A stretch of 54,603 bases of DNA from Chiloscyllium plagiosum (lineage: Eukaryota). Positions 41,755 to 52,951 of the stretch are shown here, piece after piece. A program made the translations under genes and the position numbers. The DNA lies in NCBI RefSeq assembly GCF_004010195.1, contig NC_057751.1:3068379-3122981 (forward strand). Direction: 5' to 3'. Each line of letters begins with the position of its first letter. Position 1 is the stretch's first letter. Below the pieces are notes generated by a model, which saw only the letters and a list, made by a program, of their open reading frames with translations, did not search any database and was not told the DNA's origin.

Positions 41755-41927
41755 TTACAGCTCTGTTGGCTGCGCTGTCTCAGGGGTTTCAAGACCTGAC
41801 TGAACAGCCTCACTGATGCACTGGGCTACGTAGGAGAGGTTCTGGCTGTTCATCAGGCTCATGTTGATCTGGCCAATGGATGTCAGGTAAATATGTCTCC
41901 TCTTCTTCAAGTACATGATCTCGGAAT
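41755..41927 (-). CDS. GOT1L1: GOT1L1-like terminal exon 9 (DSEIMYLKKRRHIYLTSIGQINMS...PTEL*)
   Basis: CAATAG| acceptor, TAA stop at 41755-41757; aligns to KHIYLLPSGRINVSGL..NLDYVA..IHEAV. Confidence 0.93.
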
Positions 41928-44900
41928 CTATTGGGAAGACACAAAGAACTGGGTGAGTGACTGCTGGGGTCTCGCGCATGCACTCTCTCTCAGACACATA
42001 CACAGACTCACACACACCTGGAGGGGCTCGCTTTGGGGGAGCTGGGCAGACATAGCTAGTGGGGAAAGTAGACATGGTGATCAATGGTTCAGGCAGAGTG
42101 AGAGCTAGAGCAGTGGGGGTGGGGGAGATGGGAGCGTCAGCCATTCAGGAGAGGGCTGAAGAGGTGTGTCTTTGTCGAGATCGAGAATCGTGTTGGCACA
42201 GTCTGAGGCCCGTCAGCCTTTCACATTGCTGTCGGCTCGCTGCCAGTCCGCAGTTGACCGAGGCAGACAAATGGAGTTGAGGACTGTGAAGGATTAAAAC
42301 AAAAAGCATAAAGTTGGCAGAGATAATGGTCAACCTGAAGATTGGGATGCTTTTAGAATGCAGGCAAGTAGGACCAGGGCACTGGGGAAAGAAAGTGACA
42401 ATACAACAAGAATGCAACTGAGCAAAAGGAAACATCAAAACAGACTGTAAAAGCTTCTGCAGGTACAGAGAAGGGACACGTTTCCATTAATTGTGCATGT
42501 TCATTTATCTTAATAGGAACTTTTGACAGGGACAGAGGAATGGGATAGAAGCTTTGTCTGTCACTGAAGGAGAGACAAAGCATCTCCCAGGACGAGAGAT
42601 CCAAGTGGCTTTGGAGAATGAGTTGTTGAAGGGAATTAGCAGGAGTCAGCAGGTTGTACAGAAGAAACGTATGGGAGTGAAAGGTGCAGATTTCCCAGGA
42701 GTTGATGGTCTACACAAAGATGGTTAATGTCGCCCCACTCTTTAATAAAGAGAGTGAGAGAGAGAGAGAGTGAGAGAGAAACCCTGGACCTTCTGATTGG
42801 CTTTGCCAAATATCAGTCGCCAGACAAATGCAGGAGGTTACTGTCAAGGATGTGATGATGAGACACTCTGGTGTCAATGAGGTGGTTAGGCACAGTTAGC
42901 ACAGGTTTGGGTCACTTTGGAAGGAGCTCTGTCAGACCACACTGAGAGCACTGTCTGCAGATCTGGTTTTCTTCTCTCGAGGATCACAGCCAAGGTGGGC
43001 ATCTGGAACCCAAAGGAAGGTCAGGGGAGGGGTCCTGAGTCTGAGAAGAAGAGACAGGTTTGTTGATGGGACAGTTGTAAACTTTTAAAATCTCTCTGGT
43101 GGAGGGCTGGGGAAACTCGCTGTGTTGAAGGTAGAGATTGTGAGATTTCTGATTGTCAGGATTGGTGTCGGGAATGGAGAAGACGCGTTGTACTGTCCCA
43201 TCAGTCATGACCATGTCCAATGTCCAGACACACTCAATGGGCTGAATGGCCAGCACCTCTTCATTAAAAAGGACCTGCTTGATGGACCTTGCTGCTTTAA
43301 GATGGAGGGTCAGCAAGTGATTGGCCGGATTGGGAATGGAGTTTTATTTTTAAAAGCCTTCCCTCGTGGGATGTTGGCATCGCTGGTTGGGTCAGCATTT
43401 ATTACCCATCCCTAATTAGTCAGGGGGCAGCTGAGCATCAACCCCATTACTGTGGGTCTGGAGTCACGTGTAGGCCAGACCAGGTAAGGATGGCAGTTTC
43501 CTTCCCTGAGGGACATTCGTGATTCAGATGGGGATTTCCCAATAAGGGAATCATGGTCATCACTGGACGAGTTTTTGTTGTTGTTGAATTAAGATTTCGC
43601 CAGGTGCTGGGGTGGGATTCAAACCCAGATTCGGAGAACACGAGGCTGGGCCGGCGCCTGCCAGGGTGACCCATTGGTGGTGTGGGACAGCATGATGCTC
43701 TGCTCTGGGTGACACTCTGCTGAGGCTTTCCATCCCGGATCCCCAGGGCTGTTCCCACTGGCTTCCTGATCCCGATGGTGATTACCAGCTTGGAAATTAC
43801 AAGCAACGCCTGATCCAGCCGGTTCCCCTTTCAACCCCCTGGAATGGCACCCCGTGGGTTCACTTGCCGCAGCTGCTTGGGAGGGAGGGCCTTGTGGGAT
43901 CTTGCCATGCCAGGAGCCTCACCTTTGAAGTCAGCGAACATGTAGAGTCCGATCTGTCGTCTGATGTGGTTCAGCGGCCTGAGGGTCCCCAGAGTGCGCA
44001 GCTCCTCCGCCAACTTCTCCCTTATCAACATCAACCGCTCCGCCATGCTCCTCAGATTTGCCTGCCTGGGGGTGGACACAGAGGGGGGGAGGAAGGGAGG
44101 GAGGGAGGGAGGAAGAGCCTCTTGTTACCTGGAGGAAACACTCCCTCTTGTCATGCCCCCACGGCCCACCCCTGCACAAACACATCATCTCCATTTCTCA
44201 GGCTGGTGAAAGAGGATCAGACTTTGACTCCGGTGACACACACCTATTCAGGGATTTTGTTTATGTCTCAGCTTGGGGGCGGTTTTGGAAAGGTCCCTGG
44301 ACGAAAGAGGATAGCACTCCTGAGAAAAAGGGGGAAAGGTTCAAGCAAGTAGTTGAGGGGCAATTGCAGTTTCGAACCGATGGAATAAAGCCCTGAACAG
44401 GCCATTTGAAGCTGAGAGTGTTTAAACCCCAGGGTCTGCAAGCTTGAGGAAATGTCAACGTTTCTGGCATAAGCCCTTCAGCGAGACTGACATCATTCCT
44501 GATGAGCTTATGCCCGCAGTGTCGACTCTCCTGCTCCTGGGGTGCTGCCTGACCTGCTGTGCTTTTCCAGCAACACATTTTTTGACTCTATATCACCAGC
44601 ATCTGCAGTGCTCACTTACTCCTGGTTAGATGAAACATGTTGAAGTGTTTGAGAGAGCGTGCACACACTCAAGGGGCAGTTTGTGACGAGCCTACATAAT
44701 TGTTTCTGGGATCCTTAAAGGAATGTTTTGGATGAAGGGGATGATATTGTACCATGTGTTTTACAACCCATTAAGTTGGGTAAATAGTTTGGCTTCTAGT
44801 ATTTTATCTCCAGTGCTTTGTGTAAGAAGCTCCTGTTTTGTTGTTAAAAGCAGGACGGTGTGTACATCTCTCAGGGAGAGAGCATCGGTCCAAAACAAAA

Positions 44901-51871: not shown

Positions 51872-51904
<33 letters not shown>

Positions 51905-52951
51905 GTTGGGGGGTGGGGTTTGGCATCGGTCAGCAGAGGACTCTTCGTATATCCCACAGCGACACTCCCTCCCTCCCCCACAACCTCCCTCCCCCACAAC
52001 CTCCCCCCACCCCTATTTAAGAAAGAGTTGGATAGAGCTCTTAAGGATAGTGGGATCAAGGGTTATGGAGATAAGGCAGGAACAGGATACTGATTAAGGA
52101 TGATCAGCCATGATTATATTGAGTGGTGGTGCAGGCTCGAAGGGCAGAATGGCCTACTTCTGCACCTAATGTCTATTGTCTTCCCCATCATGGAGGTCCA
52201 TGTGTCCTGCAGGGGCTGGGGAGGGCCAACGGGTGAGCAATGTGCCCCCACCCCCCCCCCCCACCACCCAACCTACCCCCCCCCCCCTCTGCCCAGTGTG
52301 GGTGAGGTGCTTCCACACTGAGCCCTGTTTACCCGTGCCCCAGGGGCAGACCGTGTGAGGTAGTGAGAACACCCCAGCAGTGCCCACCACACCTGCACTG
52401 GAATGGCGCCCAGATGTGGTCCCTCCAGCAGAGTCTGTGACCCGTAGCTGCTGATGGTGTGGAACACTGGGACACAGGGTGACCTGTTTTGACCTCTGTG
52501 CTGACCCCCATGCCGTGCGAAGCAGATTGAGAACCCAGTCAGGATCCCCCTGAGGGTGGGAGAGCAGTGAGGTGAGCCATATCTTTGGGACGTTGGGAAT
52601 GGGTCCATGTTCAGTATGGCCTCTTCCCAAGGGGAGCGGTGTGGTGGGCTCACCCAGAGCCAGGCAGACCAGCCCTGCTCAAGCCCACCACAGTGACTGC
52701 CGATGTGGTTGAAACCCACCAGGACCCCTCTTCCCCCCACCCTACCCCCCACCCCCCCCAAAGACTCACCCTCTTCTCCACGATCGCAATGCTCTCACTA
52801 CCCAGGATAAGGGCTGTAGATACCCTGTTAAACTCCGACTGCCCCAGCACTGATATGTCATCATGGCACAGTGTCGGGTCGTTTAGGATCTGCCTGTGAA
52901 CCTTCCTGACCACGGGCAGCGTCCACACCTCTCCGTCCTCGGCAAAGTACT
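41755..52951 (-). CDS. GOT1L1: Aspartate aminotransferase-like protein (GOT1L1-like), 5'-partial; exons 2-9: complement join(52770..52951,51737..51860,50792..50904,49308..49412,46235..46385,45608..45773,43923..44065,41755..41927)
   Basis: Internal exon sizes 182/124/113/105/151/166/143 match the GOT1-family structure as I recall it; all GT-AG, continuous frame, no stops. Motifs include WTLPVVRKV, PGGNGAL, NAPEYS, CAQSYSKNFGL (PLP Lys), ERVG, [9 protein letters not shown] and HIYL..GQIN. The GQIN (not GRIN) motif and overall divergence favour GOT1L1 over GOT1. Confidence 0.88.
43923..44065 (-). CDS. GOT1L1: GOT1L1-like exon 8 (QANLRSMAERLMLIREKL...NHIRRQIGLYMFADFK), 143 nt
   Basis: CCCCAG| acceptor, AAG|GTGAGG donor; aligns to TMADRILTMRSEL...NHITDQIGMFSF. 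Confidence 0.94.
44448..44620. mobile_element. Penelope-derived repeat, head-to-head inverted pair with decayed hammerhead cores
   Basis: GTCAACGTTTCTGGCATAAGCCCTTCA ... CCTGATGAGCTTATGCCCG..GTCGACTCTCCTGCTCC. Confidence 0.7.
45608..45773 (-). CDS. GOT1L1: GOT1L1-like exon 7 (DERVGSLTIV...[26 protein letters not shown]), 166 nt
   Basis: TTCCCAG| acceptor, TG|GTGAGT donor; not in the ORF track, found by manual translation. Confidence 0.95.
46235..46385 (-). CDS. GOT1L1: GOT1L1-like exon 6 (RKRLFPFFFVTAQG...CAQSYSKNFGLC), 151 nt
   Basis: TTTGCAG| acceptor, G|GTGAGT donor; carries the class-I aminotransferase PLP-attachment motif SYSKNFGL. Confidence 0.95.
46725..47415 (+). mobile_element. CR1 3' fragment interrupted by a nested CR1 3' end (47011-47181)
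   Basis: Host sequence resumes colinearly after the insert; the insert ends in an (ACTCTATG)n-type tail. Confidence 0.87.
47665..48262 (+). mobile_element. CR1 LINE 3' fragment
   Basis: Colinear with 36540-37195. Confidence 0.88.
49308..49412 (-). CDS. GOT1L1: GOT1L1-like exon 5 ([35 protein letters not shown]), 105 nt
   Basis: TTCCAG| acceptor, AAG|GTGAGG donor; aligns to [27 protein letters not shown]. Confidence 0.95.
50110..50650 (+). mobile_element. Degenerate CR1 3' fragment
   Basis: KDIIKLERVQ, ELPEDVLD..LKRHLD. Confidence 0.8.
50792..50904 (-). CDS. GOT1L1: GOT1L1-like exon 4 (ETHVFTFQGAGFSDIRRYLYWD...LEDME), 113 nt
   Basis: GGCAG| acceptor, GAG|GTACC donor; aligns to [22 protein letters not shown]. 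Confidence 0.94.
51290..51670 (+). mobile_element. CR1 3' fragment
   Basis: PCYGKDITKLQKVQRKFPRMLPGL..WNELP. Confidence 0.82.
51737..51860 (-). CDS. GOT1L1: GOT1L1-like exon 3 (ADSIQVPGGNGAL...VYVSEPCW), 124 nt
   Basis: CCCCAG| acceptor, G|GTGAGT donor; aligns to VGGVQSLGGTGAL...VYVSSPTW. Confidence 0.94.
52770..52951 (-). CDS. GOT1L1: GOT1L1-like exon 2 (EYFAEDGEVWTLPVVRKV...IVEKR), 182 nt
   Basis: TTTGCAG| acceptor and AGG|GTGAGT donor on the - strand; aligns to GOT1 AYRTDD..WVLPVVKKV..KEKR. Confidence 0.94.

Follow-up and report, generated by a model that had tools for sequence, protein, structure and literature searches.

What becomes of an aspartate aminotransferase (AspAT) when the residues on which its chemistry depends have been replaced and the gene nevertheless persists? 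The question is raised by a minus-strand gene of the shark Chiloscyllium plagiosum, located in a window of 54,603 nucleotides (nt; contig NC_057751.1, positions 3,068,379 to 3,122,981; the window is the whole stretch analysed, and positions given below are counted from its first letter). The gene encodes a GOT1L1-type protein, and the role of human GOT1L1 is contested, having been given as aspartate racemase, as weak transaminase, or as unknown. The evidence presented here suggests that the active site of the shark protein has decayed, and that selection has moved to an outward helix face, which would most likely serve to dock a partner.

The part of the gene in the window comprises eight exons, with AG at all eight acceptors and GT at all seven donors, and a single open frame of 384 amino acids (aa) that contains no internal stop and ends in TAA (stop at 41755). 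This frame is identical, letter for letter, to residues 53-436 of database protein P0002, labelled by NCBI as 'aspartate aminotransferase, cytoplasmic-like isoform X1' of Chiloscyllium plagiosum. The exon map and this identity confirm the eight exons, canonical splice sites and absence of stops described in a sequence-only reading of the stretch, and the gene, which had been annotated before, belongs to a known ortholog group. The eight are exons 2-9 of the gene; the window does not include exon 1, and residues 1-52 of P0002 gave no real tblastn match in it (best E 0.55). The exon layout is presumably GOT1-like.

By plain similarity, GOT1 matches the query better (E 1e-120) than mouse GOT1L1 does (E 9e-78), which would account for the label 'cytoplasmic-like'. 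Searches returned orthologs for 15 species of chondrichthyans and 124 GOT1L1 rows from bony vertebrates, and also recovered shark GOT1 as separate genes; three isoforms (P0001, P0008, and P0017) and one partial sequence (P0005) were excluded before counting. In a 26-row LG+G4 tree, chondrichthyan and bony (tetrapod and fish) GOT1L1 form one branch (support 100/99) and GOT1 forms a separate one (support 97/96), and a 60-row quick tree agrees. A shark-specific duplicate of GOT1 was rejected by the approximately unbiased (AU) test, in which forced grouping with shark GOT1 gave a p-AU of 5.5e-6. The GOT1L1 branches are long, and some attraction is possible in the tree. The query nevertheless carries 14 of the 15 clade-specific positions (V95 differs), defined as residues found in at least 70% of both chondrichthyan and bony GOT1L1 and rare in GOT1. 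The GOT1L1-like identity proposed from the sequence alone is thus borne out by both trees and the AU test: the shark gene is the cartilaginous-fish ortholog of GOT1L1, and the separation of GOT1L1 from GOT1 is older than the divergence of sharks and bony vertebrates.

In pig-type GOT1 numbering, the shark protein keeps W140, H143, S255, K258, R266, and R292, and replaces Y70>D, T109>N, N194>W, D222>F, Y225>A, and R386>Q. These are the six kept and six replaced residues of the sequence-only reading, all recovered by alignment, to which G38>R, A224>T, Y263>C, N297>T, and F360>Y can be added. The Y70>D change is restricted to the query, as 12 of the 13 chondrichthyan rows retain Y70. Aligned to pig GOT1, the protein shows no gap at the listed active-site positions, and an AlphaFold2 model of the shark protein (pLDDT 91.7) shows a fold-type I AspAT fold that superposes on pig and human GOT1 with an rmsd of 1.4-1.5 Å over about 406 columns. 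Given this gap-free alignment and superposition, no register shift restores D222 or N194, and misalignment at these positions is rejected; the structural alignment that had been suggested as a possible source of equivalents for both residues restores none. The model therefore indicates that the AspAT fold is kept. In AspATs, D222 binds the pyridine nitrogen of pyridoxal 5'-phosphate (PLP), N194 and Y225 bind its O3', R386 and R292 bind the substrate, and K258 serves both as the Schiff-base lysine and as the base (PMC5643538; papers are cited here and below from their accessible passages). The D222A substitution by itself lowers turnover more than 1000-fold (PMC11027755). The shark protein lacks the cofactor-electronics residues D222, N194, and Y225 (now F, W, and A), the phosphate residues Y70 and T109 (now D and N) and the alpha-carboxylate residue R386 (now Q), which supports the earlier view that normal transamination is unlikely.

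Across the clade, the same positions do not converge on a new arrangement. N194, D222, and Y225 are retained in none of the 15 chondrichthyans, and R386 in none of 12. N194 is replaced by W (8), Q (3), R (2), H (1), or D (1), and D222 by Y (10), F (4), or T (1). K258 itself is present in 10 chondrichthyans and lost in 5/15 through independent changes, to R in the sevengill shark and the chimaera (2) and to T in skates and the electric ray (3), and R266 is lost in 4/14. In bony vertebrates, K258 is lost in 27 of 123 GOT1L1 rows, including all eight marsupial rows with a residue at this position, and it is a His in cod and clownfish. The losses of mouse GOT1L1 (G108, T109, W140, H143, Y225, R266, and R292) are largely complementary to those of the shark. 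Of 127 positions that are near-invariant in canonical AspATs, 18 belong to the active site and 109 do not; chondrichthyans retain 0.48 of the former vs 0.74 of the latter (p 0.002), and bony GOT1L1 0.41 vs 0.63 (p 0.014). An intact fold with preferential loss of catalytic residues, as expected of a pseudoenzyme, is thus present.

A new reaction would be expected to fix a new residue set and to keep the lysine. Neither occurred, which argues for decay of the active site and not for new chemistry. The 'rebuilt' active site of the sequence-only reading is accordingly not upheld, as the replacements vary among orthologs, and its suggestion that PLP is bound for different chemistry fares poorly given the losses of K258 and R266. 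Its statement that the Schiff-base lysine and the phosphate ligands persist is correct for the query (K258, S255/R266) but not across orthologs. Of the two options that it left, the non-catalytic one fits the data better. New PLP chemistry is unlikely, and so, because the catalytic lysine was repeatedly lost, is a conserved enzymatic role, D-aspartate synthesis included. Sequence and established chemistry together point to a pseudoenzyme with at most trace activity.

What the clade shares instead may lie on the surface. Nine of the 15 clade-specific positions fall within residues 312-344 (Fisher p 1.6e-7, for an interval picked post hoc), and six of the 15 occupy one helix face: E328, M331, E335, K336, E339, and R342 in GOT1 numbering, corresponding to E341, M344, E348, K349, E352, and R355 of the query. 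This face points at 193 degrees, vs 20 degrees for the buried hydrophobic face (p 0.01). Five or six of these residues occur in 13 of the 14 chondrichthyan rows and in 123 of the 124 bony ones, counts that are partly circular as these are the defining sets. GOT1 has none or one of them in all 62 rows, and none of the 98 unnamed representatives that are gap-free and have their catalytic core intact carries more than two. These patterns indicate that selection has moved to residues 341-355, on the side of the long helix that points outward.

This face would be accessible in a dimer. A homodimer model of the shark protein scored 0.76, vs 0.00 for the best control, with runs agreeing in at least 94% of contacts and a pLDDT of at least 88. 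Among microbes, 21 of 30 pairs and none of 23 singles reached the mark for this score, and 17 of 29 eukaryotic pairs did so (7 of 16 in animals). Of seven pairs without a solved relative, only one reached it; the score may therefore reflect memory of solved AspAT dimers. The dimer is probably kept in shark GOT1L1. None of the 60 named interface residues of the model belongs to the helix face, unnamed residues being uncertain, which fits a free surface outside the predicted interface.

Splicing and purifying selection are both evident for the gene. Contigs joining exons at the predicted boundaries were found in three of the four runs examined (X1, X4, and X5), and one X5 contig of 1611 nt matches exons 2, 6, 7, 8, and 9 in order, followed by a 3' untranslated region (UTR) with AATAAA. 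For exons 2, 7, and 8, the pieces listed from run X1 have 0 differences. Among the 30 coding differences listed between X5 and the query, a best-supported subset, 17 are synonymous and 13 nonsynonymous, which for 262 synonymous and 890 nonsynonymous sites gives a pN/pS ratio of 0.23 (p 6e-5). In the single-cell run X10, of unlabelled tissue and about 2% read, there was essentially no depth in exon-only bins, an outcome that carries little information. None of the runs listed for the sequence is recorded as RNA, which counts neither for nor against transcription. The earlier claim that selection maintains the protein is supported by the pN/pS ratio and the spliced contigs. A decaying young pseudogene or an annotation artefact was also considered, as the carpet-shark branch is somewhat long and carries the extra losses Y70D, Y263C, N297T, and PG347-348LR. 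This explanation is rejected as very improbable in view of the open frame, the spliced contigs, the pN/pS ratio, the orthologs in 15 chondrichthyan species and the identity of the X1 pieces.

Where such a protein might act is suggested by mammalian data. Mouse Got1l1 mRNA is testis-only, in spermatocytes and sperm (PMC4282708), and a GOT1L1 dimer was modelled in the C1b projection of the central apparatus in mouse sperm, where GOT1L1 is favoured as the protein that fits the map best and is expressed in spermatids (PMC12297659). GOT1L1 occurs in three of four sperm proteomes (bull, pig, and mouse) and in none of five proteomes of non-sperm cilia (PMC11779644 supplement); in the human sperm proteome it is unlisted, as are SPEF2 and LRGUK (PMC11779644). 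Its values (bull 7.87, pig 7.40) are near those of SPEF2, CFAP69, and LRGUK (7.67-8.10 in bull and 7.08-7.19 in pig; PMC11779644).

The reading that is slightly favoured is a pseudoenzyme dimer docked via the 341-355 helix face in sperm C1b. The fold, and probably the dimer, would have been retained from an AspAT ancestor, and loss of the residues that make the PLP electron sink and bind the substrate carboxylate would have left a pseudoenzyme. The outward helix face would then dock the dimer onto a partner, at the C1b projection of the central apparatus of the sperm flagellum, where the protein would act as a non-essential accessory structural subunit. Partner docking via the helix face is the most likely role for this surface, and a location in C1b is likely in the shark by orthology with mammals.

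A number of observations weigh against this reading. The helix face was scored on the same sets that defined it, and the bony GOT1L1 set is mammal-heavy, its rows not being independent. Newly found GOT1L1-type proteins carry five of the six face residues in newt, frog, and anole and four in softshell turtle and cod, and three in clownfish, two in a caecilian isoform and one in rhea, a sea-krait model being gapped there; on present sequences the face is widespread, not universal. Synteny was not established for the shark gene with RAB11FIP1/ADRB3, which we take to be the GOT1L1 neighbourhood: all 402 non-repeat stop-to-stop frames of at least 45 aa in 1-41700 lacked a Pfam match above the cut-off, with weak sub-threshold matches only, and motif scans likewise revealed no neighbouring gene. 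Eutherians keep D222 in 79/79 rows, N194 in 72/79, K258 in 65/79, and R386 in 69/79, so that mammalian GOT1L1 may not be dead and residual activity is plausible. Indeed, mouse Got1l1 made in HEK293T cells gave detectable L-glutamate, i.e. weak transamination (PMC4282708). The authors of the C1b model propose an enzymatic D-aspartate role and regard the assignment as uncertain, GOT1 or GOT2 being possible (PMC12297659), and in the accessible passages on predicted interactions no partner of GOT1L1 in C1b is mentioned. Sperm proteomes also contain GOT1 and GOT2, at higher values than GOT1L1.

Part of this evidence would suit a pseudoenzyme with a partner-binding helix face acting elsewhere, in another germ-cell complex or in other shark tissues. 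The decay and surface data are equally compatible with this explanation, and so are the uncertain C1b identity, the viable and fertile Got1l1 knockout mice (PMC4282708), and the shark runs X1, X4, and X5, which carry no tissue label and are RNA by guess. It is rather unlikely, however, as both the fit to the map and the expression in spermatids speak for GOT1L1 in C1b and the proteomic pattern of GOT1L1 is sperm-only. If PLP were still bound via K258, the protein might instead catalyse a different or very slow reaction with an unprotonated pyridine nitrogen, as in beta-elimination enzymes and racemases, or slowly transaminate another substrate. PLP binding is possible in the query, which keeps K258, S255, R266, W140, and H143; loss of N1 protonation can steer specificity, and, besides the weak transamination of the mouse protein, there is an earlier claim of aspartate racemase activity (Kim 2010, as cited by a later paper), the function being termed debated in PMC9283133. 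Such chemistry nevertheless seems distinctly improbable, since K258 was replaced independently in several chondrichthyans with no fixed new residue set, and the bulky W207 and F235 stand in place of small polar cofactor ligands. In the accessible passages of PMC4282708, moreover, D-aspartate was unchanged in the knockout mouse and racemase activity was not found.

A weaker rival is heterodimerisation with GOT1, in which residues supplied in trans (Y70, R292, S296, and N297) would complete a GOT1 site, giving a half-active dimer that tethers GOT1 to the axoneme or regulates it. In chondrichthyans, the four trans sites are retained at 0.86 vs 0.37 for the 14 cis sites (one-sided p 0.04, post hoc), and 120 of the 124 bony rows have Y70. 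GOT1 is present in 4/4 sperm proteomes (PMC11779644), the weak activity of Got1l1 made in HEK293T cells could be due to its co-purification, and a precedent exists in radial spoke 3 with its MDH1A/MDH1B dimer (PMC11779644). By contrast, bony GOT1L1 shows no trans/cis difference (0.46 vs 0.40, p 0.44), the query carries Y70>D and N297>T, the interface shares less identity with GOT1 (23/60) than the remainder does (168/345), and the trans residues may persist merely for dimer packing; the explanation is accordingly quite unlikely. An extension of it, held to be no less doubtful, makes GOT1L1 a dead adaptor since the origin of jawed vertebrates, with the helix face on the sperm central apparatus and the dimer interface capturing active GOT1, completed in trans by Y70 and R292. 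If true, together with MDH1A/MDH1B on radial spoke 3 a cytosolic arm of the malate-aspartate shuttle would be built into the axoneme, and the disputed weak activity of purified GOT1L1 would be explained.

The shark gene and its orthologs put the dispute over GOT1L1 in another light: the six-residue surface has been kept from sharks to mammals, while the catalytic lysine was lost repeatedly. Whether helix 328-342 is a C1b contact in 9IJJ would also decide between GOT1L1 and GOT1 as the source of the density. Two points limit the impact: the gene had been annotated before, and Got1l1 knockout leaves mice fertile. Among the open-access papers listed, none described GOT1L1 as a pseudoenzyme or in sharks, or its conserved helix face.

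Table 1. Features of the shark GOT1L1 gene, in window positions (residues in pig-type GOT1 numbering, except for the helix face, in query numbering)
Feature	Position	Strand	Remarks
Exon 2, 182 nt	52770..52951	-	Y70>D codon 52859-52857; covered by X1, X4, X5 contigs
Exon 3, 124 nt	51737..51860	-	T109>N 51833-51831; W140 kept 51740-51738
Exon 4, 113 nt	50792..50904	-	H143 kept 50899-50897
Exon 5, 105 nt	49308..49412	-	N194>W 49367-49365
Exon 6, 151 nt	46235..46385	-	D222>F 46361-46359; Y225>A 46352-46350; K258 kept 46253-46251
Exon 7, 166 nt	45608..45773	-	R266 kept 45768-45766; R292 kept 45690-45688; N297>T 45675-45673
Exon 8, 143 nt	43923..44065	-	F360>Y 43944-43942; spliced to exon 7 in X1, X4, X5
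GOT1L1-specific outward helix face, E341 M344 (L345) E348 K349 E352 R355	43996..44040	-	hand-counted from exon map; proposed docking surface
Exon 9, coding part, 173 nt, including stop	41755..41927	-	R386>Q 41871-41869; spliced to exon 8 in X4, X5
3' UTR	41623..41754	-	AATAAA at 41636-41631; X5 contig match ends at 41623

Several further observations concern the gene and its relatives. In the 357-aa isoform model P0001, exons 3-4 (51860-51737 and 50904-50792) are skipped in frame, which would delete core fold elements, and high-copy repeats occupy several introns. Position 386 is Arg in 69 of 79 eutherian rows (P0130-P0234) and Gln in chondrichthyans (12/12), amphibians, sauropsids (31/31), and most marsupials; this distribution suggests a reversion in placental mammals, which could underlie the weak mouse activity. 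The rhea protein P0237, with one of the six face residues, is the sole bird GOT1L1 among the sequences examined, and the docking surface may have been lost or changed in birds. Degenerate copies of cytosolic AspAT were also noted for one cockroach, gall wasp, weevil, and fungus each and, as a second copy, for a caecilian (P0241, P0249, P0253, P0269, and P0294); all are without K258 and have none or one of the six face residues, and dead AspAT paralogs seem to have arisen repeatedly.

The rest of the window contains a 41-bp minisatellite of about 49.5 copies (24795-26822), with long spurious open reading frames in several frames, and related 33-bp tandem repeats at 10918-11921 and 40022-40131, the former flanking a gap of 453 N (11346-11798). 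A remnant of a reverse transcriptase of the long interspersed nuclear element type lies at 13053-14157 (weak RVT_1 match below the cut-off, E 8e-4). A 116-aa stop-free, exon-like frame at 17124-17471 on the plus strand has no Pfam match and no Atlas match above 0.75, and is probably non-coding.

Two axonemal proteins of metabolic origin invite comparison. Jhc1 is a pseudoenzyme derived from a thiamine triphosphatase that lost its catalytic residues and gained new ones for localisation (bioRxiv 10.64898/2026.02.04.703868), and the MDH1A/MDH1B dimer of radial spoke 3 is an axonemal duplicate of a metabolic enzyme (PMC11779644); the folds and locations of both are unrelated to GOT1L1, and they serve as analogies only. 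GOT1 (PF00155, fold type I; 1AJR and 6DND) is much closer: the shark model is alike in fold (TM 0.91/0.96, rmsd 1.4 Å), with 46-47% identity, and resembles its dimer-type interface. All six core residues are nevertheless present in 60 of 62 GOT1 rows, as in 28 of 28 invertebrate or fungal AspAT rows, whereas the shark protein keeps two (K258 and R266). Mouse GOT1L1 belongs to the same clade and combines a degenerate active site with all six helix-face residues, but it keeps N194, D222, and R386, which are absent in the shark, and is without W140, R266, and R292, which the shark protein has.

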